A stretch of DNA of 64,000 bases from Gracilimonas sp. (GTDB lineage: Bacteria; Bacteroidota; Rhodothermia; Balneolales; Balneolaceae), in NCBI RefSeq assembly GCF_035704785.1, contig NZ_DASSWP010000030.1, forward strand, positions 17,112-81,111, written 5' to 3'. Positions 1,943 through 15,043 of the stretch are shown one piece after another. The notes under the pieces are model-generated. The model worked only from the letters and a program-made list of their open reading frames with translations, made no database searches and was not told where the DNA came from. Within the stretch, counting starts at the first letter, position 1. Each line of letters starts with the position of its first letter. The translations under genes were made by a program, and so were the position numbers.

Positions 1943-2587
1943 ATGGCGCAGATTTTCCCCAAGTGGACAAATCAGGTTCCCCGAAAAATTTTAATTGGAT
2001 TAATCGTTGTACTTAACGCACTAATTTTTGGTGTTTGGTATTTCTTTTCCCCTGAATACACTGACGTTGGCTATGCTCCGGAACAACCGGTTCCTTATAG
2101 TCATAAACTACACGTAGATCAGCTTGGGCTTGATTGTCAATATTGTCATACAAATGTTTTTGAATCAAAGTTCGCGAACATTCCTGCCACTCAAACTTGT
2201 ATGAATTGCCACAACCAGATCAAAACAGATAGTGATAAACTTGAATTGGTGCGCGAAAGTTGGGAGACTGGTAAATCCCTCGAATGGGTCCGGGTGCATA
2301 ACCTTGCTGATTATGCCTATTTCAATCACTCTGCTCACGTTACTGTAGGTGTTGGGTGTGAAAGCTGCCACGGCAGGGTCGATAAGATGGAAGTTGTGTA
2401 TCAGGCTGAGCCACTTAGCATGAGCTGGTGCCTGGATTGCCACAGGGAGCCCGAAAAATATATACGTCCCGTTGATGAAGTTACCACCATGGGATATGAA
2501 GTTGAAAATCAGCTAGAGCTTGGAAGAGAATTGGTAGAGAAGCAAAATATTCATGCTCCAACCTACTGCCAGGGTTGTCATTATTAA
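1943..2587 (+). CDS. actA: Alternative complex III pentaheme cytochrome c subunit ActA
   Basis: N-terminal TM helix plus five CxxCH motifs (CQYCH, CMNCH, CESCH, CLDCH, CQGCH); first gene of the act cluster. Confidence 0.92.
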   Translation: MAQIFPKWTNQVPRKILIGLIVVLNALIFGVWYFFSPEYTDVGYAPEQPVPYSHKLHVDQLGLDCQYCHTNVFESKFANIPATQTCMNCHNQIKTDSDKLELVRESWETGKSLEWVRVHNLADYAYFNHSAHVTVGVGCESCHGRVDKMEVVYQAEPLSMSWCLDCHREPEKYIRPVDEVTTMGYEVENQLELGRELVEKQNIHAPTYCQGCHY

Positions 2588-2589
2588 TA

Positions 2590-5500
2590 ATGAAGGATTC
2601 AGAAATTACAGATCAACAAATGAGCGAAGAAGTCAAAGAAAATACATATTGGAAGAGCTTAAGCGAATTAGCCAATAATAAAGAGTACCAAAAATTTGCT
2701 GAGCGTGAATTCCCTGAAAATGCCACTGAACTGACCGATGGGGTTTCCCGCCGCGGATTCCTCCGTGTTATGGGAGCTTCCGTAGCTTTGGCAGGATTGG
2801 CAGCTTGTCGCCGTCCGGTTCAAAAAATATTGCCATACTCAAAACAGCCTGAAGATGTGGTGGAAGGTGTGCCTTTATTCTATGCAACCGCCATGCCTGT
2901 TCAAGGTAATTTGGTTGGATTGATCGCTGAAAACAACGAAGGACGCCCAACCAAGCTTGAAGGAAATGACCTTCACCCTGCCAGCAAAGGCGGAAGCAGT
3001 ATTTACAATCAGGCGGCCATTCTCGGCCTTTACGACCCTGACCGCTCTCGTTTTCCCTTATATAATGGGAATAAAGCTTCCCTAGAAGATTTTGAAGCGT
3101 TCGCAAGTTCTCATTTTGCAAATACCAGTCAGCGGATCGCTTTTATTTCTGAAGCCAATTCCTCTCCTACCTATAATAGTATAAAGGAGCAGGCGCTTTC
3201 GAAATTCAACAATGCTACCTGGGTTACTTACGAACCTTTCGGTGAAGATAATGTACTTGAAGGGAATAATATTGCTTTCGGAAGCAGGTTACGCGCTTAT
3301 TACAATTTTGAAAGTGCAGATGTCATTGTCTCCCTGGATGATGACTTCATGAGCTCGACACATCCAAACAGTGTTGACTATGCCAAGCAGGTTTCGGCTC
3401 GCAGAAAGGTGACCGATACCAATGGTGAAATGAATCGTATCTACGCCGTAGAAGATTCTTTCTCCCTCACCGGTTCTTATGCTGATCATCGTTTAAAGAT
3501 CAAGGCCAGCCAAATGGAGGGATTTACCTATGCTCTCGCTGCCGCGCTTTCCACCCGAATTAATGGGTTAAATACTTTCAACGGATATAGCAACGAATTT
3601 TCTGATCATCGATGGATCACCGTTCTTGCCGATGAGTTGGCAGCAAACGCCGGAAGTTCTACTCTGTCAGCAGGAGCTCAGCATAAACCTGAAATACACG
3701 CCGCAGTGGCAGCGATCAATCAGGCCTTAGGTAATGTTGGAAACACGGTTAGCTACCTTGAAATTCCTTATACCGATGCACAGAGCAGCACCGCAGCTTT
3801 CCAAGAGGTGGTAGCTGAAATGAAAGCCGGCAATATTGATACGGTTGTTATGGTTGGTGTGAATCCTGTTTACACCGCTTCTGCTCTTGATTTTGGGAGC
3901 GCCCTCTCCAATGTTGAAACCGTGGTCAATCTTTCTGATTACGTAGATGAGACTGCCAAGAAATCAAACTGGCACGTAAATCATGCCCACTTCCTGGAAG
4001 CTTGGGGTGACGGATATTCTTATGGCGGAGCGCTTTCAGTTATACAGCCTCAGATTCAGCCTTTATTTAATGGGCTGAGTGGCATCGAATTTTTAAACAC
4101 TATTGTAAACGGGTCTTTGGAGCAGGGTTATTCCCTTGTTCAGGATACCTTCCGCGGATTTTTCAGCTCCGGTTTCAACAACCGCTGGACCAACATCCTG
4201 CACGATGGTATTGCCACGACGAATAATTTTAATGCCGTAAATGTACGGATAAGCTCCGATTTTGCTTCTGCAATGAATCGGGCTACATCAAATATATCTT
4301 CAACTTCGGGTATTGAAGTTGTTATTCGCCCTGATGCTACTTTATATGACGGGCGTTACGCAAACCTGGGCTGGCTTCAGGAACTTCCTGACCCCATGAC
4401 CAAGATCACTTGGGATAATGTGGCCCTTATGAGTCCTGCAATGGCAAAACGATTAGGTATAGAAAAGCCGGGTCCCGGAAATGATGCCTTTGATGTAGTT
4501 GAGATTACGGTTAATGGAAAAAGTATTGAAATTGCTGCCTGGATTCAGCCCGGTCACGTAGATGATTCCATCACTTTAACAACCGGCTATGGCCGTAAGG
4601 GAATTGGTCGCGTTGCTAGTTCTTACATTGATTACACCGCTGGCGGCGTTGATGTGTATCCGTTGAAAGCAACTTTAGATATGTTTTTTACAGCTGCTGA
4701 AGTTTCAAAAACCGGAGAAACCTACGAAATTGCCTGTGTTCAGGATCACCACAGTCTTGAAGGCCGCGATATGTATCGTCAGGCCTCCCTTTCTGAATAC
4801 AAAGAAAATCCGGACTTCGCCTCTTTTGAATCGGTTCATACTTATCCCGTTCCGGGAATGAAAGAAGCGGCCGAAATGGGTGAAGATGAGCCTATTTCAC
4901 TCTTTGACGAGCAAACCTTCCCTGATTACGAACCACAATGGGGAATGGCTATTGACCTGAACTCTTGTTTTGGTTGCGGAGTGTGTGTGATCGCTTGTCA
5001 GTCAGAGAACAATATCCCTGTGATAGGCAAGAAAGAAGTTAAACGCGGCCGTGAAATGCACTGGATAAGAAATGACCGCTATTACGTTGGTGATGATCCA
5101 AATTCACCGCAAGCCGTTCACCAGCCGGTCCCTTGCATGCACTGTGAGTTGGCTCCTTGTGAGCAGGTTTGTCCTGTTGCGGCAACCACCCACAGCCCCG
5201 ACGGCATGAACCAAATGACGTATAACCGCTGTATCGGAACTCGTTACTGCGCTAATAACTGCCCGTACAAAGTGCGTCGTTTTAATTTCTTCAACTATCC
5301 CAAAGAATATTTAACCACCGGTGACGATCCCGATATCATCCAAATGGCGATGAACCCGGAAGTTACCGTACGTTTCCGCGGTGTAATGGAAAAATGTACG
5401 TATTGCGTGCAGCGTGTTAACCGTGCTAAAATTAAAGCCAAGATAGAAACCGGTTCAGTAATACCGCCGGACGGTGCAGTTAAAACAGCTTGTCAACAAG

Positions 5501-5667
5501 CTTGCCCTGCCGATGCCATATACTTTGGTGACATATCCGACGAAGATACCGAAGTTGCCAAAATGAAACGCAATCCACGAAACTATCAGATGCTCGAGGA
5601 ACTCAATACACGTCCGAGAACATCATATGTAGCTAAACTTACGAACCCGAACCCAGCTTTGGCTTAA
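2590..5667 (+). CDS. actB: Alternative complex III subunit ActB (molybdopterin-oxidoreductase-like domain plus Fe-S domain)
   Basis: YWKSL N-terminus, Tat motif SRRGFL, lipobox LAAC, C-terminal ferredoxin Cys clusters (CFGCGVCVIAC, CMHCELAPCEQVCP, CIGTRYCANNCP); start could be 2590 or 2620. Confidence 0.93.
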   Translation: MKDSEITDQQMSEEVKENTYWKSLSELANNKEYQKFAEREFPENATELTDGVSRRGFLRVMGASVALAGLAACRRPVQKILPYSKQPEDVVEGVPLFYATAMPVQGNLVGLIAENNEGRPTKLEGNDLHPASKGGSSIYNQAAILGLYDPDRSRFPLYNGNKASLEDFEAFASSHFANTSQRIAFISEANSSPTYNSIKEQALSKFNNATWVTYEPFGEDNVLEGNNIAFGSRLRAYYNFESADVIVSLDDDFMSSTHPNSVDYAKQVSARRKVTDTNGEMNRIYAVEDSFSLTGSYADHRLKIKASQMEGFTYALAAALSTRINGLNTFNGYSNEFSDHRWITVLADELAANAGSSTLSAGAQHKPEIHAAVAAINQALGNVGNTVSYLEIPYTDAQSSTAAFQEVVAEMKAGNIDTVVMVGVNPVYTASALDFGSALSNVETVVNLSDYVDETAKKSNWHVNHAHFLEAWGDGYSYGGALSVIQPQIQPLFNGLSGIEFLNTIVNGSLEQGYSLVQDTFRGFFSSGFNNRWTNILHDGIATTNNFNAVNVRISSDFASAMNRATSNISSTSGIEVVIRPDATLYDGRYANLGWLQELPDPMTKITWDNVALMSPAMAKRLGIEKPGPGNDAFDVVEITVNGKSIEIAAWIQPGHVDDSITLTTGYGRKGIGRVASSYIDYTAGGVDVYPLKATLDMFFTAAEVSKTGETYEIACVQDHHSLEGRDMYRQASLSEYKENPDFASFESVHTYPVPGMKEAAEMGEDEPISLFDEQTFPDYEPQWGMAIDLNSCFGCGVCVIACQSENNIPVIGKKEVKRGREMHWIRNDRYYVGDDPNSPQAVHQPVPCMHCELAPCEQVCPVAATTHSPDGMNQMTYNRCIGTRYCANNCPYKVRRFNFFNYPKEYLTTGDDPDIIQMAMNPEVTVRFRGVMEKCTYCVQRVNRAKIKAKIETGSVIPPDGAVKTACQQACPADAIYFGDISDEDTEVAKMKRNPRNYQMLEELNTRPRTSYVAKLTNPNPALA

Positions 5668-5694
5668 GATATTAATCAGGAATACATCCAAAAC

Positions 5695-7122
5695 ATGAGT
5701 AAATACCAATACGTACCGGAACCCACTCTTGTAAAAGGCGATCACGACTTTGCGAGCCTTACACGACTGGTTACTGATATTAATTTACGACCCACTCCCA
5801 AAGCATGGTACTTATGCATGATCGGGGCTAATGCCCTGCTTATGGTTATGGTTGTGGCCATTGGGTATCTAATTTGGGAGGGAACCGGAATCTGGGGCCT
5901 TAACAATCCTATTGGTTGGGGTTGGGCTATCATCAACTTTGTATGGTGGGTTGGTATTGGCCACGCCGGAACGTTGATCTCAGCTATCCTTTTCCTATTC
6001 CGACAGGACTGGCGTACTGCCATTAACCGTTTTGCGGAAGCGATGACCATCTTTGCGGTAATGTGTGCCGGAGTATTTCCGGCCATTCACGTTGGACGTA
6101 TCTGGGCTATCTACTGGGTATTCCCAATTCCTAACCAAATGGCTATGTGGCCCAACTTCAACTCTCCCCTTCTTTGGGATGTGTTTGCCGTTTCTACATA
6201 CTTCACCGTATCCTTTTTGTTCTGGTACGTTGGCTTGGTTCCCGATCTTGCTACCATCCGCGACCGTGCCACTGATAAGGTTCGAAAGGTTGCTTATGGA
6301 ATCTTCGCTTTAGGCTGGACCGGCTCAAACCGCCACTGGTGGAATTATGAAAAAGCATACATGATCTTAGCCGGATTAGCTACTCCACTGGTACTTTCTG
6401 TTCACACTATCGTATCCTTTGACTTTGCTGTTTCTTTGATACCGGGCTGGCACACCACCATCTTCCCTCCATATTTCGTTGCCGGGGCTATTTTCTCCGG
6501 TTTTGCAATGGTGCTTACGCTGATGATCGTTGCCCGCAAGATCTACGGAATGAAGGATATCATGACCGATGATCACATGGAGAAAATGAATATTGTGATA
6601 TTGGTTACCGGCTCCATGGTAGGTTTTGCCTATATGATGGAATTCTTCATCGCCTGGTATAGTGGCGTTGAATACGAAAAAGCTATTTTTATACTGAGAG
6701 CAACCGGTCCTTATGCATGGGCTTACTGGGCTATGATGACCTGTAACGTGCTCTCTCCTCAGTTCTTCTGGTCTAAGAAATTACGCCGCAGTGTCGGGTT
6801 CACTTTCTTTATCTCTATTGTGGTAAATATCGGTATGTGGTTTGAACGATTTGTAATTACAGTTACTTCACTGGCAAACGATTACCTGCCATCAAGCTGG
6901 GGTTATTATTCCCCTACTATCTGGGATGTTTTGACTTACGTTGGAACATTCGGCCTCTTTTTCACCATGTTCCTGCTGTTCCTGCGCTTCCTTCCAATGG
7001 TTGCACTTGCAGAGATCAAAGCGGTAATACCACAAGCCGATCCTCATAACTATGATGAGGAAACCGGTGAATTCCATAAGCCAAAAATAGAAGTACCGAA
7101 ACCTCAATCTGGGAAGGTTTAA
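5695..7122 (+). CDS. actC: Alternative complex III quinol-binding subunit ActC (NrfD/PsrC family)
   Basis: [41 protein letters not shown] motifs. Confidence 0.93.
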
Positions 7123-7127
7123 CAATT

Positions 7128-7673
7128 ATGAGTACGACTGATCAAAATAATTTATACGGAATTGTTGCTGAGTTTAAAACTCCTAAGCAACTTATTGATA
7201 TTGCCAAAAAAATGGTGGAATCAGGCTACAACAATTTTGATACCTTCAGCCCTTTCCCCATTCATGGAATGGATAAAGCCATGAAACTTAAAAAATCGAA
7301 ATTGGGCTGGATTGTACTTATATGTGGTTTAATCGGTTTTACCGGTGCTATCGCCATGATGTATTATATGGCTGTAGTTGACTATCCGATGAACATTAGC
7401 GGTAAGCCATTTTTCAATGCACCCGCCTGGGTTCCCATCACTTTTGAATTGACCGTATTGCTATCATCTTTTGGCGCTGTATTTGGGATGTTTTACCTGA
7501 ATGGGCTTCCAAAGCTTAACAATCCTCTTTTTAATGTAGAACGCTTTAAAAAAGTAACTGATGATAAATTCTTTGCCTGCATCGAAGCTGACGATGATAA
7601 ATTTGAAGCTGACGAAGTAAAGAAACTGTTTAAGGAAGCCGGAGCTACCCATATCGAGGAAGTTTATGAATAA
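7128..7673 (+). CDS. actD: Alternative complex III subunit ActD (DUF3341)
   Basis: DTFSPFPIHGMD and PITFELTVL motifs; two TM helices. Confidence 0.9.
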   Translation: MSTTDQNNLYGIVAEFKTPKQLIDIAKKMVESGYNNFDTFSPFPIHGMDKAMKLKKSKLGWIVLICGLIGFTGAIAMMYYMAVVDYPMNISGKPFFNAPAWVPITFELTVLLSSFGAVFGMFYLNGLPKLNNPLFNVERFKKVTDDKFFACIEADDDKFEADEVKKLFKEAGATHIEEVYE

Positions 7674-8703
7674 AAAGAACACGCAAATATCATTTCCAGG
7701 AATGAATTTTAAAGGAATGTTTAAGATTGCGGGCATTGTTGCGCTCGGAGTCTCCCTCTCGGCTTGTCAGGGGCAGCTTTCAGAAAAGCCGCCTATCCAT
7801 CCCAATATGAACATGGATCAACAGCCTAGAAAAGAAGCTCAGGAAGTTAACAATTTCTTTGCAGACGGCCGGTCCATGCGCCCCCCTGTAAAAGGGACTG
7901 TTGCTCGCGGATTAGCAAAATTAGATACCGAATATTACGAAGGCGTTGATGAGAACGGAGAATATATCGAACGTATTCCGGTTGATCTCACCCGATCTTT
8001 CCTATATCGGGGTAAAGAACGCTATGAAATTTTTTGCACTCCTTGTCACGGCCAAACCGGTGCGGGTAATGGTATTATCATGGAGGGAAATTATGGATAT
8101 GTTCCGGCTCCTTCCTACCATGATCAACGTGTGAGAAACCTTTCGGATGGCGAACTTTATTCCGCTATTTATAACGGTGTGCGAACCATGCCTTCTTATG
8201 CTAGCCAAATTGATGTTGAAGACCGATGGGCCATTGTAGCTTATATCCGTGCGCTTCAGGAAAGCCAGAATATCAGTGAGGAGGAACTGCAACAGTATGA
8301 TGTTGATATCGCTTCCCTGAATTCAAAAGCAGCTGAAGAACAAGCAGTAGCTGATTCTATTGCAGCTGCCCGGGAAGCCAGTTCAAAAGGACAGGAACCG
8401 ACTATCGAACTTGGGCAGGAAGCTATAACAGCCAATGCCTGTGGAACCTGCCACAGTGAAGACGGTACAGCCGGCATCGGACCAACATGGGCCGGATTAT
8501 TCGGAAGTGAAGGTGAGGTTATCACCGAGGGTGGTGAAACCATTACTGTAACAAAAGATGAAGACTACATTCGGGAATCGATTGTTGAGCCGAACGCCAA
8601 GAAACCTGTTGATTTTGCTCAGGGCGTGATGGCCTCCTACAGTTACCTATCTGATGTTGAGATAGAATCCATTATCCTGTACATAAAAAATCTTGAAAAC
8701 TAA
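7666..8703 (+). CDS. actE: Alternative complex III cytochrome c lipoprotein ActE with a second C-terminal cytochrome c domain
   Basis: Lipobox LSAC; MDQQPRK..MRPPVKGTVARG; CTPCH and a second CGTCH; position between actD and actF. Confidence 0.88.
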   Translation: MNKKNTQISFPGMNFKGMFKIAGIVALGVSLSACQGQLSEKPPIHPNMNMDQQPRKEAQEVNNFFADGRSMRPPVKGTVARGLAKLDTEYYEGVDENGEYIERIPVDLTRSFLYRGKERYEIFCTPCHGQTGAGNGIIMEGNYGYVPAPSYHDQRVRNLSDGELYSAIYNGVRTMPSYASQIDVEDRWAIVAYIRALQESQNISEEELQQYDVDIASLNSKAAEEQAVADSIAAAREASSKGQEPTIELGQEAITANACGTCHSEDGTAGIGPTWAGLFGSEGEVITEGGETITVTKDEDYIRESIVEPNAKKPVDFAQGVMASYSYLSDVEIESIILYIKNLEN

Positions 8704-8728
8704 GAACTTTGCTTAATTCACTTACACA

Positions 8729-9940
8729 ATGAGTCATAAGCCTACAATAACAGATTCTTTACAATTTCCAGCTGACAGCAAAGTTCCTCGTGCCTTATTT
8801 GGGATCGGTACAGTTGGTCTTATTGCTACCATTATAGGTTACTTCTTTGATGCCAATCAGTTTTTCTTTTCGTACTTAGTCAGCTTTACTTTTTTTACAG
8901 GCATAGCATTAGCCGCATTGATCATGGTTATGCTTCACCATATTACCCGTTCCAGCTGGGGAGTTCTTTTTAGACGAATTGCAGAAACTTTATCCGCCAA
9001 TTTATGGATATGGGCTATTTTTATCCTTCCGGTGATTCTCGGTATCCATAATCTATACCACTGGAGTCACCCCGAACTGTTGGACTACTCAAGCTCCGAG
9101 TTTGACAAGATCATATCCGGTAAATCGGCTTACCTGAATTCAACTTTTTTCATCATCCGCCAGGTCATCTATTTTGTGATCTGGGGATATTTGGGCTATA
9201 AGCTTCACAAGGTATCCGTTGAAATGGACAAAACCGATGACTGGGGTCTGACATATTTACTTCGAAAAGTAAGTGCCCCCGGCATCTTGCTATTTGCACT
9301 TACTGTAGCTTTTGCAAGTTTCGATTGGTTGATGTCGCTTGATCCCCACTGGTTCTCTACCATGTTCGGCGTGTATTTCTTTGCGATCAGCTTCCAGGCA
9401 TTATGGCCTGTAATGATCTTACTTGTGTTTTATATGCAGCGGAAAGGACTTCTTGCCAATACTATTCGTCAAGTGCATATCTACGATCTGGGTGCCTGGT
9501 TCTTTGCCTTCACCATATTTTACGCTTATATCGCTTTTAGTCAGTTTTTACTTATTTATTACGCGAATATTCCGGAGGAAACCATTTGGTATTTCCATAG
9601 ATTGGAAGGCGGATGGGAGTTTATAGCGTACAGCTTGTTAATCTTCCGCTTTGCCGTGCCTTTCCTGATTCTCCTGAATCGTGAGGCCAAAAAGAATAGA
9701 ACCATTCTTGGTGGAGTTTCAGTATTGGTACTCATTATTCACTTTGCAGAAATTTATTGGATAGCGATGCCGGCTTTGTACGACCATGGCATTAGCTTCA
9801 GTTGGATGGATATCACAGCCTTTCTTGGATTAGGAGGCCTGTTCTTTGGATTATTCTTCCATACTTTCAAGAAACACAGCATGGTTCCAGAAAATGATCC
9901 TAAATTGGATGACTGTCTCTCTAAATCGTATCATCAATAA
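8729..9940 (+). CDS. actF: Alternative complex III membrane subunit ActF
   Basis: About 10 TM helices; FASFDWLMSLDPHWFSTMFG and YIAFSQFLLIYYANIPEET motifs. Confidence 0.9.
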   Translation: MSHKPTITDSLQFPADSKVPRALFGIGTVGLIATIIGYFFDANQFFFSYLVSFTFFTGIALAALIMVMLHHITRSSWGVLFRRIAETLSANLWIWAIFILPVILGIHNLYHWSHPELLDYSSSEFDKIISGKSAYLNSTFFIIRQVIYFVIWGYLGYKLHKVSVEMDKTDDWGLTYLLRKVSAPGILLFALTVAFASFDWLMSLDPHWFSTMFGVYFFAISFQALWPVMILLVFYMQRKGLLANTIRQVHIYDLGAWFFAFTIFYAYIAFSQFLLIYYANIPEETIWYFHRLEGGWEFIAYSLLIFRFAVPFLILLNREAKKNRTILGGVSVLVLIIHFAEIYWIAMPALYDHGISFSWMDITAFLGLGGLFFGLFFHTFKKHSMVPENDPKLDDCLSKSYHQ

Positions 9941-9951
9941 TCGAATTACCG

Positions 9952-10488
9952 ATGTCAGAAAAGTATAGTTCAGAATTTAAAGCTAAAGTAGCACTCGAAG
10001 CCGTATCACAGAGTCGTTCTGTAATTCAGAAGATCGCTGAAAAGCATGACATATCTGAAGAAGAGGTGATCTCCTGGGCAGCACAATTAAATGAAGATGC
10101 TGCCAGTTTATTTGGTGCAGAAACAACCCATGTTGATGACGGCGGTGAAGTTGAAGATGTTGACATCACTACTAATGATGAGGAATTTGCCGCAGCTGTT
10201 TCCCACGGAGTGATGAGCGATAACCTGAATTACGGTAAACTCATTTTCTGGTCTACCCTTGGAGCTTCTCTTGTAATAATTTTTGTTATAGGATTGGTTT
10301 ATTTTTCTCAGTATAGCTTATTTGAAGCACAAAAAGAGGCTTCTTCAAGAGTAACATATTCTGATTTCAGTGCTTTAGTGGCTGAACAAAAACAAGAATT
10401 AAACAGTTTTGGTGTAGTTGACCTCGAAGAAGGTATCTACAGAATTCCTATTGACAGCGCTATTAACAGAATAGCCATAGAAGACTAA
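9952..10488 (+). CDS. ActG-like single-pass membrane subunit with an N-terminal IS3-transposase-like HTH
   Basis: Lies between actF and the SCO gene; one TM helix; C-terminal GVVDLEEGIYRIPIDSAI typical of ActG; N-terminal YSSEFKAKVALEA like HTH_Tnp_1. Confidence 0.65.
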   Translation: MSEKYSSEFKAKVALEAVSQSRSVIQKIAEKHDISEEEVISWAAQLNEDAASLFGAETTHVDDGGEVEDVDITTNDEEFAAAVSHGVMSDNLNYGKLIFWSTLGASLVIIFVIGLVYFSQYSLFEAQKEASSRVTYSDFSALVAEQKQELNSFGVVDLEEGIYRIPIDSAINRIAIED

Positions 10489-10495
10489 AATAATC

Positions 10496-11326
10496 ATGAG
10501 ACTTTTTACACTGTTAGCTCATATGTTGCTTGCAGTGTTTCTGACTTCACAGGCTGCTTTGGCGCAGTTAAACCGTGAACAACCGGATGCATTGCAAGAT
10601 CTTGGCATCGATGAACATTTGGGAGATATCATCCCTCTTGATGCCAAATTTGCAACTTCAGAAGGTGACAGTGTTCTTTTAAATGAACTTCTTGAAGAAG
10701 GTAAACCGATTTTATTGAATCCATTGTATTACGAATGCCCCATGTTGTGTGGGTTAGTTTTGGATGGAACAATCAACGTAATTGAAGAACTGGATTGGAA
10801 ACCCGGTAAAGATTTTATTGTTATATCTGTCAGTATTGATCCGGATGAAGATACTGAACTTGCGGCTCGGTCTAAACAAAATTACCTGAGCCAAATGGAT
10901 TCAACCACCAAAGCAGGGTGGTATTTTTTGACCGGCAACAAGACACAGATTGACAAAGTAGTTGAAGCCGTTGGGTTTCGATACAAAGAAATTGAAGGCA
11001 CAGGTGAATATGCCCACAGTGCAGCAATTATACTCCTGAGTCCTGATGGGAAAATAACCCGTTATCTGTACGGTATTTCCTATGATGAATTTAATGTTCG
11101 CAGTGCTCTATATGAGGCCGCAGATGGAAAGATTGGAAACACCATAGACAAAATTGTCATGTACTGTTATCAATATGATCCTGATTCCGGTAGTTATACG
11201 CCGGTAGCAATTAATATTATGAAGCTTGGTGGCTTGGCTACGCTGATATTTCTCGGTATATTCTTGGGTTCGCTTTGGCTTCGCGAAAAACGCAAAAAAC
11301 AAACCTCAAAAACTGATATTAACTAA
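10496..11326 (+). CDS. SCO1/SenC family copper chaperone
   Basis: YYECPMLCG (CxxxC) and AHSAA His; lies within the oxidase operon. Confidence 0.9.
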   Translation: MRLFTLLAHMLLAVFLTSQAALAQLNREQPDALQDLGIDEHLGDIIPLDAKFATSEGDSVLLNELLEEGKPILLNPLYYECPMLCGLVLDGTINVIEELDWKPGKDFIVISVSIDPDEDTELAARSKQNYLSQMDSTTKAGWYFLTGNKTQIDKVVEAVGFRYKEIEGTGEYAHSAAIILLSPDGKITRYLYGISYDEFNVRSALYEAADGKIGNTIDKIVMYCYQYDPDSGSYTPVAINIMKLGGLATLIFLGIFLGSLWLREKRKKQTSKTDIN

Positions 11327-12270
11327 TGGGCAGTTTATTCGATTTTATGCTTCCGGAGCTTAAATCTCCATTAACAGGAGCAAGTACCGATGCAGTGATG
11401 GCTTTCATCCACATTGTAAGCTTCATTATTCTTGCCGGTGTCACGATCGCATTGATCTATTTTGCGATCAAGTATAAGCGCAAGTCTGAAGACGACGAAA
11501 CGCCACTGATCACCCACAACAATAAGCTTGAGATCACTTGGTCAGTAATACCCCTTCTTCTGGTATTCATCGTATTTGGATGGGGATATAAAGGGTGGCT
11601 GAATCTTAAAACCCCTCCTGATAACGCTTACGAGATCCATGTTTCTGCTTACAAGTGGGGATGGACCTTCAGCTATGAAAATGGTGCTCAGGTTGGAAAT
11701 GAAGTTCATGTACCCGCAGGTCGCCCCGTTAAATTAGTGATGCAGTCAGAAGATGTATTGCACTCCTTTTTTGTACCGGCCTTTCGTATTAAGCAAGATG
11801 TGCTCCCTAACAGGTATACCACAGTATGGTTTCAGGTAGAAGAGCCGGGTGAATCTCAGGTTTTTTGTACGGAATATTGCGGAACCTCTCACTCTGATAT
11901 GTTAGCCACTGTAGTGGCTCATACTCCAGATGACTTTGAAAGCTGGCTTTCAGAACAAGGTTCAGGCAGTGGAGGAACACCCGTAGAAAGGGGTGAAAAC
12001 CTGATTAGTATTCAAGGGTGTGTAACCTGTCATTCTGTTGATGGTTCAGAGAAAATTGGCCCAACTTTCCAGGGACTATTTGGCCGCGAAGAAACGATGA
12101 CCGATGGAACTACTCTGACCGTTGATGAGAATTACATTAGAGAATCTATTTTGGATCCCGGAGCAAAAATTGTTGAAGGATATCAAAACCAGATGGTTAG
12201 TTACGAAGGTCGCTTAAGTGACGAAGACATCTCCGATATTATTGAATACATTAAAACTTTAGAAGATTAA
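11326..12270 (+). CDS. coxB: Cytochrome c oxidase subunit II with fused cytochrome c (caa3 type)
   Basis: [15 protein letters not shown], CuA motif [13 protein letters not shown]-terminal CVTCH. Confidence 0.95.
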
Positions 12271-12271
12271 T

Positions 12272-13975
12272 ATGTCAACAGCTGAAGTAACTCCGGAATC
12301 TACCGGAACAAAAAAGACATTAAAAGTAAAACGGTACAAGCCGTCCGAAGACCCCAAAAATACCTATTTAACCGATGAAAAAGGTCTATGGGCTTGGATG
12401 ACCACTGTAGATCATAAAAAGATCGGGCTCATGTACCTGGGCTCAGTTACTTTCTTTTTCTTATTAGGCGGTATTTTAGCACTTCTTTTAAGGACAGAAC
12501 TTTTAACACCTGCCAAAACCTTCATTGAGGCCGATACCTACAATCAGTTCTTCACGCTCCACGGAGCTATCATGGTATTCTTTGTGCTAATACCCTCCAT
12601 CCCTGCCGCGCTTGGAAACTTTGTACTTCCTATGCAGCTTGGAGCAAAGGATGTAGCGTTTCCGAGGCTCAACCTCGCCAGTTTCTATATCTATGTTATT
12701 GGAGCCATTTTTACATTCATTGCTCTTGCAAATAATGGATTAGACACCGGCTGGACCTTCTACACTCCTTACAGTACCGAATCTTCATCGAGTGTAATAT
12801 GGGTAACGCTTGGGGTTTTCATACTTGGATTTTCATCCATATTAACCGGTACTAACTTTATTGCCACCATTCACAAGTTACGGGCACCCGGTATTACCTG
12901 GGGTAAACTTCCTTTGAATTTATGGGCATTATATGCCACAAGTATTATTCAGGTACTTGCTACTCCTGTATTAGCTATTACAGTTTTGCTTCTTACTATG
13001 GAGCGTGCTCTTGGAATAGGAATTTTTGATCCGGCTCTTGGCGGTGACCCGGTTTTATTCCAGCATTTCTTCTGGTTCTACTCTCACCCCGCTGTATATA
13101 TTATGATCGTGCCTGCCTTTGGGATCATCTCTGAAGTGATCACTACCTTCTCCAAGAAACATATTTTTGGATATTGGGCGATCGCACTTTCATCCCTAGC
13201 CATTGCCTTTATTGGATTCCTCGTATGGGGACACCACATGTTCACCTCAGGTCAGTCGGCTGTAGCAACCACCGTTTTCTCATTCCTAACTTTCTTAGTG
13301 GGAATCCCGACCGGTATTAAGATCCTGAACTGGGTTGCTACCTTATACAAAGGTTCTATTCAAATGAAATCTCCGATGATCTATGTATTCAGCTTCTTGT
13401 TCATATTCTCTATCGGTGGATTTACAGGGATCATGCTTGGAGCACTTTCAGCCGATATTCACCTTCACGATACCTATTATGTGGTAGCCCACTTTCACTA
13501 TGTGATGATGGGTGGTACCCTGATTTCATTTCTTGCCGGACTCCACTATTGGTGGCCAAAAATGACAGGGAAGATGTACAACGAATTTCAGGCTAAGATT
13601 GGAGCTGCTTTAATTTTCATCGGCTTTAACACGACCTTCCTTCCGCAGTTCATTATGGGATCGCAGGGAATGCCTCGACGATATTATAACTACATAGATC
13701 AGTTTACCATATTCCACCAAACTTCAACTATCGGTTCTTATATACTTGGAGTTGGATTCTTACTGATCGCTTACTACTTAGCAAAATCATTAATGAGTGG
13801 TGAAAAAGCCGGTTCAAATCCATGGGGAAGCCGTGGTTTGGAATGGCAGGCAACATCACCACCTGATTTCCACAACTTCGATCACACTCCGGTGATCATT
13901 AATGGTCCTTATGACTATCACAGGCCTATGGAAGAATTCCAGCTTGGCTTGGCGAATGAAGACAAAGATCACTGA
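12272..13975 (+). CDS. coxA: Cytochrome c oxidase subunit I, type A2
   Basis: [20 protein letters not shown] (YS motif of type A2), VWGHHMF, VAHFHYV. Confidence 0.96.
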
Positions 13976-14046
13976 TGAAAATTGAAGCTCGGAAAAGAGT
14001 AGAAAACAAAAAAATGCAAACCAACAAAACACAACTCGGGAAGTAA

Positions 14047-14697
14047 ATGGCGAATCATTCGACTTCACACCCTACGCATGTGCATCATCACTTTGTTGAT
14101 TCCGATCAGCAATTTGATACCGCAAAATTGGGTATGTGGGTGTTCTTAGTAAACGAAATCTTATTTTTTGGCGGGTTATTCTGTGCCTATATCGTTTATA
14201 GAGCATGGTATCCGGAACTATTCCAAATGGCTGCACTTGAGCTCAATACCTTTTGGGGAGCAGTAAACACTGTTGTTCTTATCGGTAGTAGTTTAACGGT
14301 AGCTATGGCCATACGGTCTGCCCAGAAAGATCAAATGAAAGGGTTAAAAATAAACCTTCTCATAACTATTGGCCTTGCAGTGGTATTTATGGTTATTAAA
14401 GGCTTTGAGTATGCCCATAAGTTTGAGCTTGGCATTTTCCCGGGTGAGTATTACACCTATGAAGGTCTTGATCATCCACAGGCAGCTATTTTCTTTAGTA
14501 TCTATTATATGCTGACCGGTGTTCACGCTTTGCACGTTTTGATCGGTATCGGCTTGATCTACTGGATCTACCGAAGAGCAAAGAAAGGAGAATTTAGCAG
14601 CGAGTACTATACTCCTGTTGAGATTACAGGACTTTACTGGCACTTGGTTGACCTTATATGGATCTTCCTCTTCCCGCTACTTTACCTCATTGAATGA
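14047..14697 (+). CDS. coxC: Cytochrome c oxidase subunit III
   Basis: GMWVFLVNE, LTGVHALHV, YWHLVDLIWIFLFP. Confidence 0.93.
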   Translation: MANHSTSHPTHVHHHFVDSDQQFDTAKLGMWVFLVNEILFFGGLFCAYIVYRAWYPELFQMAALELNTFWGAVNTVVLIGSSLTVAMAIRSAQKDQMKGLKINLLITIGLAVVFMVIKGFEYAHKFELGIFPGEYYTYEGLDHPQAAIFFSIYYMLTGVHALHVLIGIGLIYWIYRRAKKGEFSSEYYTPVEITGLYWHLVDLIWIFLFPLLYLIE

Positions 14698-14725
14698 CAG
14701 ACTTTATCCTAAACGATTTTAGACT

Positions 14726-15043
14726 ATGAGCACACATAATCACGAACATCATATTTCTACAGCAGGCCAGCTTTGGGCCGTTGGAACCGCACTGTTGATC
14801 CTGACCATCATCACGGTGGTAGTCGCAAAATTTGTTGCGATTCCCCCACCCTTTGATGTGGTCACCGCTATATCCATTGCTTTGATAAAAGCATTTTTGG
14901 TAGCTGCATTTTTTATGAATTTATATTGGGATGTAAAATTCAATGCTATGCTTTTAATCACGGCTGTAATATTCTTCCTTTTAATGATCTCCATTACATT
15001 ACTTGATACATTGTATCGAAATGATGTAGTGCCTTCATTTTGA
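14726..15043 (+). CDS. coxD: Cytochrome c oxidase subunit IV family protein
   Basis: Three TM helices, KAFLVAAFFMNL motif; last gene of the operon. Confidence 0.85.
   Translation: MSTHNHEHHISTAGQLWAVGTALLILTIITVVVAKFVAIPPPFDVVTAISIALIKAFLVAAFFMNLYWDVKFNAMLLITAVIFFLLMISITLLDTLYRNDVVPSF

Follow-up and report, generated by a model that had tools for sequence, protein, structure and literature searches.

A predicted two-haem ActE in Gracilimonas and other Balneolaceae, with an added caa3-type cytochrome c domain as the probable built-in carrier between alternative complex III and the oxidase

Introduction

In Rhodothermus marinus, alternative complex III (ACIII) reduces the caa3 oxidase directly, ActE being the donor to the cytochrome c domain of oxidase subunit II. 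The ActE proteins of Rhodothermus, Roseiflexus and Flavobacterium have been described as monohaem. The handover of electrons from ACIII to the oxidase is still unsettled, with ActE as the direct donor in R. marinus on one side and a mobile ActA domain in Flavobacterium johnsoniae on the other. Here we describe the ActE encoded in a stretch of 64,000 nucleotides from Gracilimonas sp. (assembly GCF_035704785.1, contig NZ_DASSWP010000030.1, positions 17,112 to 81,111; referred to as the window, and numbered from its first letter). This ActE carries, behind its normal haem domain, a second cytochrome c domain that is predicted to bind haem. An earlier note on the window, made from the sequence by a reader without database searches, had pointed it out.

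The closest functional precedent, which that note had missed, is found in F. johnsoniae. According to Sun et al. 2018, as described in two later papers (PMC5928083, PMC8552683), its ActA has an extra, membrane-anchored and mobile N-terminal monohaem cytochrome c domain, proposed to act as a shuttle to the aa3 oxidase. According to the same papers, subunit II of that oxidase has no cytochrome c domain, and the mobile domain of ActA is said to replace it. Tethered cytochrome c domains are therefore known in the coupling of ACIII to oxidases. What is new is a two-haem ActE found across a whole family, and a three-haem one elsewhere, with a helical arm that appears to be controlled in length. With its conserved additional module beside that of CoxB, the Balneolaceae ActE offers a natural experiment on the handover of electrons between ACIII and the oxidase, and cultured Balneolaceae (Gracilimonas, Balneola) make it experimentally accessible.

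Architecture of ActE

The actE frame codes for 345 amino acids (Table 1). Its residues 26–206 align end to end with the ActE chain of R. marinus (6F0K_E, E = 8.4e-73). The two share the lipobox, a CxxCH motif with a Met ligand and the gene position between actD and actF, and the lipobox region of the R. marinus protein aligns with the region of Cys34. This cysteine (C17 in alignment numbering), the predicted lipid anchor, was invariant in 45 of 45 homologues. The ligands of the first haem site were likewise invariant in these homologues (C107, C110, H111 and M158, alignment numbering).

Where the described ActE proteins have one haem, the Gracilimonas frame has two CxxCH motifs, and a Met ligand region goes with each of them. 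The stretch 8290–8703 encodes the C-terminal 137 residues of the 345-residue frame, with no stop in frame. A connector that starts after RALQESQN and has a conserved Y-D-V-D-(I/L) turn leads to the second cytochrome c domain, ActE-C, in which the haem motif is CGTCH and Met322 is the putative axial ligand. Pfam recognized two stretches of cytochrome c in ActE and gave no COX2 or cupredoxin match in it. Thus the translation of the frame, Pfam, the CGTCH/Met322 pair and the match to structure 1W2L described below bear out the earlier note in its claim of a second cytochrome c domain after a normal ActE haem domain. Judged from its sequence, the Gracilimonas ActE is a variant, two-haem architecture: a normal lipoprotein ActE, a connector and a class I cytochrome c domain. 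Haem binding by ActE-C is predicted from the intact ligands.

Public records call the start at M18 (7717), which gives a form of 328 residues, and an identical protein of this length (P0002) is present in public data. There the protein goes under 'c-type cytochrome', 'cytochrome c2' or 'mono/diheme cytochrome c family protein'. Labels such as the first two conceal that it is an ActE and that it is a fusion.

The solved ActE chains of R. marinus (6F0K_E), F. johnsoniae (6BTM_E), R. castenholzii (6LOD_E) and C. aurantiacus (8K9E_E) match the first domain only, and none of the four extends past about residue 208 of Gracilimonas ActE. Compared with these monohaem chains, the Gracilimonas protein has about 140 extra residues, made up of the helical connector and the second haem c domain. 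The earlier note had rightly taken R. marinus ActE to be monohaem, as the literature and 6F0K_E agree. Its mention of a diheme ActE in Chloroflexus is not borne out by the solved Chloroflexus chain.

Like ActE-C, the ActA domain described for F. johnsoniae is a class I cytochrome c domain added to an ACIII subunit by a tether, and each is proposed as a carrier that needs no soluble cytochrome. The ActA domain differs in lying at the N terminus of ActA with its own membrane anchor, whereas the Gracilimonas domain lies at the C terminus of ActE, and in replacing the c domain of the oxidase, whereas Gracilimonas CoxB keeps its own. Gracilimonas ActA has five haems only. Chain A of 6BTM (F. johnsoniae ActA) was not among the sequence matches of ActE-C even at E <= 1, and the two domains probably belong to different subfamilies. 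In a full-text literature search, in which subscription-only reviews (e.g. Refojo et al. BBA) were outside the scope, we found no description of a two-haem ActE or of a Balneolaceae ACIII.

Distribution and selection

The architecture of ActE was surveyed in 151 genomes of the class and in 401 Bacteroidota genomes, a check that the earlier note had proposed. A two-domain ActE in one open frame was present in 65 of the 66 Balneolaceae genomes, which cover 17 genera, and in the genome G113 from another Balneolales family. Two other Balneolales families and all other orders in the class had the first domain only, in frames of about 200–250 residues, and the first domain alone was likewise what all other families sampled from the phylum had. 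No two-domain ActE was seen outside Balneolales in the 401 Bacteroidota genomes. The same uninterrupted two-domain frame appeared in many independent metagenome contigs.

In the alignment of 45 sequences, which reaches down to 60% identity, the CxxCH of ActE-C (C242, C245 and H246, alignment numbering) was invariant, and M305 was at least 90% conserved. Between close Gracilimonas genomes the ratio of nonsynonymous to synonymous substitution rates (dN/dS) was 0.01–0.08 for ActE-C, 0.02–0.06 for the first domain and 0.03–0.40 for the connector. The ActE fusion is real, old and under function-preserving selection. An artefact, be it a decaying pseudogene fusion or the joining of actE to an adjacent small cytochrome c gene by an assembly or sequencing error, is practically out of the question: we found no point in its favour, and it is ruled out by the same frame in 65 Balneolaceae genomes and in metagenome contigs, as well as by a dN/dS well below 1 in all three segments.

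Other arrangements were met in the course of the survey. Two further proteins, P0149 (L095:7330-8724, also L096; a Balneolales metagenome-assembled genome, MAG) and P0138 (L097:7309-8784), are three-haem ActE by sequence, consisting of ActE followed by two c domains of the 1W2L type. The two added domains of P0149 are 75% identical to each other, and the downstream CoxB keeps its own c domain. In P0138 the second linker is about 70 residues long, S/T/E/A-rich and of low complexity. Genomes of the Bacteroidia type (L099, L100, L101, L103) have an ActD-ActE fusion of 379–399 residues with a single haem. In the same loci the gene after actF codes for a monohaem cytochrome c of the PF13442 type with a transmembrane (TM) anchor, a further lineage-specific means of providing a tethered carrier.

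Connector and predicted structure

The 328-residue form of ActE was modelled by AlphaFold2 from 45 homologues. The model has a 26-residue helix in the connector (198–223 in the numbering of this form, that is, residues 215–240) with a predicted local distance difference test score (pLDDT) of 77–91, and the pLDDT of ActE-C was 82–95. The helix is Ala/Glu/Gln/Lys-rich and follows the Y-D-V-D turn; the earlier note had described an Ala/Glu-rich helical linker, and the prediction agrees with it. The spacing from RALQ to the second CxxCH was 59–60 residues in 117 of 138 two-haem ActE proteins, with a range of 56–67. In the model, the connector would resemble a stable single helix, a spacer of defined length (about 39 Å), unlike a floppy low-complexity tether. 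Being helical, nearly fixed in length and non-helical only over short stretches at its ends, the connector would fit a hinged, semi-rigid arm or a fixed dock as well as a swing.

The second domain and its family

The earlier note had described a close match of the second domain to the C-terminal domain of CoxB (CoxB-C) encoded in the same operon. Residues 209–345 of ActE and CoxB were 48% identical over 112 residues in BLASTP (E = 9e-25), a likeness far beyond chance. A six-frame search of the whole genome found only two copies of the domain, ActE-C and CoxB-C, 55% identical over 97 residues. The only significant solved relative of ActE-C was the cytochrome c domain of R. marinus caa3 subunit II (1W2L_A, phmmer E = 8.9e-16). 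A Foldseek comparison of the ActE-C model with 1W2L gave a template modelling score (TM-score) of 0.83 and a root-mean-square deviation of 2.4 Å at 40% identity, as expected if the predicted fold is the same. The pattern CxxCH...GPxxxGxxG...DxxYIxESIxxP...M is common to ActE-C and the c domains of caa3 subunit II, among them the CoxB-C of this genome, and these belong to one domain family. By sequence, then, ActE-C is a class I cytochrome c domain of the caa3 subunit II (1W2L-like) type and haem-competent. It is attached to ActE, unlike CoxB-C, which is fused C-terminally to the CuA cupredoxin domain.

The likeness stood, but it was not a special one. The identity of ActE-C and CoxB-C from the same genome was 35–56% in 17 genomes, Gracilimonas with its 48–55% being at the top of the range. 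On average, Balneolaceae ActE-C was 43.9% identical to Balneolaceae CoxB-C and 43.7% to unrelated stand-alone lipoprotein cytochromes c. Since these means are equal, the two domains are not specially close in sequence within their family.

The family itself was collected by an exhaustive, profile-free search of 1.84 billion representatives, which gave 2897 clusters at E <= 1e-3. The domain occurred in stand-alone lipoproteins (a lipobox, a Pro/Thr/Glu-rich tether of 30–50 residues and one domain), in CoxB with one to three tandem copies, in long proteins with up to seven copies, and in ActE fusions. The gene of one stand-alone lipoprotein, P0183 (146 residues, L106:1081-2419), lies divergently beside a 246-residue COX2 gene without a c domain and beside COX15/CtaA. 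Hence the module behaves as a dedicated donor to the CuA site in several packages. It may be noted that tandem-domain CoxB is common: P0144 (435 residues) is from a 23-member cluster named 'cytochrome c oxidase subunit 2', and P0126 and P0128 (about 550 residues) have three domains. Seven tandem copies of the cytochrome c domain were present in P0122 (938 residues, from an Anaerolineae MAG).

Anchored cytochromes c that link complex III and oxidases also include Rhodobacter cy and Bacillus c551. The anchored stand-alone cytochromes c of the present family are built from the same elements as the ActE extension, namely one haem c domain that a tether joins to an anchor, and are its neighbours in the tree described below. 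A Paracoccus c552 with its linker (3M97) was among the structural matches of ActE-C. In the stand-alone lipoproteins the tether is Pro/Thr/Glu-rich, of low complexity and variable, whereas the connector of ActE is an Ala/Glu/Gln-rich predicted helix of nearly fixed length. The anchor differs as well: ActE-C is held by another redox subunit, and the stand-alone cytochromes c by a lipid or a helix.

Origin of the second domain

A maximum likelihood (ML) tree was computed for 98 domains over 98 alignment columns. The 16 main Balneolaceae ActE-C domains fell in a clade with stand-alone lipoprotein cytochromes c (support 89/88), whereas the Balneolaceae CoxB-C domains grouped with the CoxB-C of other Rhodothermia, so that ActE-C was not nested within the CoxB-C of its own family. 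The CoxB-C of G113 grouped with the ActE-C from the same genome and with the two added domains of P0149 (95/83), and the ActE-C of G137 fell elsewhere. By approximately unbiased (AU) tests, it was not rejected that Balneolaceae ActE-C and Balneolaceae CoxB-C form one clade (p = 0.098), nor that all ActE-borne domains do so (p = 0.155), for which the ML tree would need three changes; the columns are so few that the test rejects neither origin. The tree is suggestive of a multiple origin of the ActE-borne domains.

The earlier note had supposed that a duplicated caa3-type domain was grafted onto ActE, and had named a phylogeny against CoxB domains as a check. The caa3 type of the domain stood. 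As to the donor, the ML tree favours the stand-alone lipoprotein group, and the AU test (p = 0.098) leaves the choice between the two sources undecided. A recent duplication of the genome's own CoxB domain is unsupported by the ML tree and by the identity statistics, although the same AU value does not reject it, and the 48–55% identity in Gracilimonas gives no sign of a recent duplication. Most sister lineages had only two domain matches per genome and no stand-alone copy. Therefore the Balneolaceae domain looks like a net gain and not like the capture of a resident gene.

In a separate FastTree analysis, the second of two c domains in P0125 (351 residues, on a 3.5-kb Logan contig), which follow a non-cytochrome N-terminal region, nested among the Balneolaceae ActE-C. 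This may be a secondary transfer or an assembly chimera.

Taken together, one possible but doubtful reading is that within Balneolales ActE acquired 1W2L-type modules, single or paired, on more than one occasion, with separate events in Balneolaceae, in G113/P0149 and possibly in G137. The result would be an ACIII with seven to eight haems, the last of them on a length-controlled helical arm. Together with the CoxB c domain, these would make a chain of tethered carriers, two or three in number, to which both complexes contribute and along which electrons pass from one carrier to the next. Should this hold, the arrangement is undescribed for any pair of complexes III and IV, and the number of built-in cytochrome c modules would be an evolvable setting of the coupling between ACIII and the oxidase.

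Proposed function and alternatives

The cytochromes of the genome (completeness estimate 100%) limit the partners that ActE-C may have. It has one full haem-copper oxidase subunit I, the coxA product of the act-cox operon. Its class I cytochrome c domains are the first ActE domain, ActE-C, CoxB-C and those of one TM-anchored dihaem protein outside the window (328 residues, CMHCH and CMDCH; C210:15338-16324, minus strand), among whose neighbours no redox enzyme was found. Searches of the genome found no small free class I cytochrome c, no cytochrome c peroxidase (CCP) and no NosZ. With one oxidase and no other acceptor found, the only evident sink is the caa3 oxidase encoded 2.6 kb downstream of actE.

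We consider it probable that ActE-C is a built-in electron carrier from ACIII to the caa3 oxidase, a relay being the most likely role given this inventory of the genome. In this proposal, the lipid-anchored first ActE domain would be the end of the ACIII haem wire proper and ActE-C its seventh haem. Electrons would pass from menaquinol through the iron–sulfur clusters of ActB and the five haems of ActA to haem 1 of ActE and on to the haem of ActE-C, from there to CoxB-C (or straight to CuA), and finally to haem a/a3-CuB. Hinged briefly at its two ends, the helical arm could let ActE-C swing, or could hold it in a fixed dock, and the ACIII-caa3 pair would work as a quinol oxidase without a diffusible cytochrome c. 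This predicts seven haems for ACIII and two tethered c domains that act as a relay. The seventh-haem relay is proposed by analogy with the direct donation by ActE in R. marinus and with the ActA domain in F. johnsoniae, and the direction and partners of electron transfer through ActE-C are to be read as conditional on that analogy. Of the swinging shuttle to the oxidase that the earlier note had envisaged, the carrier role without a soluble cytochrome fits the inventory of the genome; swinging and fixed docking suit the connector equally.

The carrier role is favoured by the family of ActE-C, which is one of CuA donors (1W2L, and P0183 beside a COX2 without a c domain), and by the co-location of ActE-C with the caa3 genes in a conserved operon. 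Several points weigh against it. The operon is the same in Rhodothermales and in two Balneolales families, CoxB c domain included, but there it works with a monohaem ActE; therefore the extra domain is not needed in principle. In Balneolaceae, ActE-C supplements the CoxB c domain and does not replace it. In F. johnsoniae, electrons can reach aa3 even without ActE. ActE-C (net charge –14) and CoxB-C (–13) are both strongly acidic, so that the two show no evident electrostatic complementarity. In the AlphaFold2 model the N domain had a pLDDT of 35–60, the mean pLDDT was 66 and the predicted TM-score (pTM) 0.43, the orientation of the domains being poorly predicted; because of these N-domain and pTM values the relative orientation of the two ActE domains in the model is not usable. 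The literature search brought up no biochemical study of any Balneolaceae ACIII.

ActE-C might instead lie off the main path to caa3 and connect ACIII or caa3 with other periplasmic redox partners, sending electrons to another acceptor or bringing them into caa3 from the C210 dihaem cytochrome c or from periplasmic dehydrogenases. That CoxB has its own c domain and that a monohaem ActE suffices in the sister lineages would suit such a branch or entry port, as would the split of electron paths at ActA/ActE that Lorencik et al. propose for F. johnsoniae and the very presence of a TM-anchored dihaem cytochrome c in the genome. That cytochrome, however, is without a redox neighbour, the genome search gave no second haem-copper oxidase, CCP, NosZ or small soluble cytochrome c to serve as a partner, and the fusion co-occurs strictly with the act-cox operon, all of which make a branch or entry port unlikely. 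Even less probable, to our mind, is that ActE-C is not kinetically required and docks on CoxB as a strap that holds ACIII and caa3 together, or stores one electron. A connector of fixed length suggests a defined geometry, the association of ACIII with caa3 is weak in R. marinus, and for F. johnsoniae it has been proposed that ActE serves as a sink or buffer of electrons, which would all agree with a strap or buffer. Yet a purely structural role needs no haem, while the haem ligands of ActE-C are strictly conserved and selection on it is as strong as on the catalytic N domain; moreover, the further c domain in series in P0149 and P0138 looks like a lengthening of the wire. Both alternatives are thus less well supported than the built-in carrier.

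The act-cox operon and its surroundings

Twelve co-oriented genes span 1943–15043 on the plus strand (Table 1).

Table 1. Genes of the act-cox operon in the window and features of the ActE and CoxB products, with window coordinates
Feature	Coordinates	Strand	Description or basis
actA	1943-2587	+	214 aa; five CxxCH, no extra N-terminal domain
actB	2575-5667	+	
actC	5695-7122	+	
actD	7128-7673	+	PF11821, 9e-68
actE, two-haem ActE	7666-8703	+	345 aa; ORF translation, ActE homology, place between actD and actF
ActE lipobox LSAC	7756-7767	+	Cys34, predicted lipid anchor; direct read of translation
ActE first (canonical) haem site	8035-8199	+	CTPCH 8035-8049 (residues 124-128), Met region TMPSY 8185-8199 (residues 174-178)
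ActE connector	8272-8394	+	residues ~203-243; between first and second cytochrome c domains
Conserved turn YDVDI of connector	8296-8310	+	
Predicted connector helix	8308-8385	+	residues 215-240
ActE second cytochrome c domain (ActE-C)	8395-8700	+	residues 244-345; similarity to CoxB-C and 1W2L, haem ligands
ActE-C haem motif CGTCH	8440-8454	+	residues 259-263
ActE-C GVMASY	8623-8640	+	residues 320-325; putative axial Met322
actF	8729-9940	+	
ORF in ActG position	9952-10488	+	178 aa; HTH_Tnp_1-like N-terminus
SCO1/SenC gene	10496-11326	+	
coxB, caa3 subunit II	11326-12270	+	TIGR02866 CoxB 1e-57; COX2 and C-terminal Cytochrom_C (Pfam)
CoxB cytochrome c domain (CoxB-C)	11980-12267	+	residues 219-314; CVTCH 12019-12033, NQMVSY 12187-12204
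coxA	12272-13975	+	only full haem-copper oxidase subunit I in the genome
coxC	14047-14697	+	
coxD	14726-15043	+	

The order actABCDEF was kept in all 40 related Rhodothermia loci, and the whole operon actABCDEF-ORF-sco-coxBACD in 39 of them. The closest relatives were Gracilimonas species, the best being G. halophila at 92%, which places the organism in the Balneolaceae. The exception in operon structure is L069 (genome G117, Balneolaceae), where actF and an ActG-like ORF are followed directly by coxC and coxD; SCO, coxB and coxA were not found within the locus stretch examined, and ActE is still two-haem there.

About 6 kb upstream of the window, two adjacent small hydrophobic ORFs (146 and 157 residues; C58:10224-10950, minus strand) gave weak COX1 matches (E = 5e-6 and 5e-5). 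At its N terminus, the ORF in the ActG position matched the transposase-type family HTH_Tnp_1 (E = 2e-5), and a TM segment comes after this match. Its homologue is 123–131 residues long in some Balneolaceae loci (L060, L062, L068, L069) and begins without this N-terminal part.

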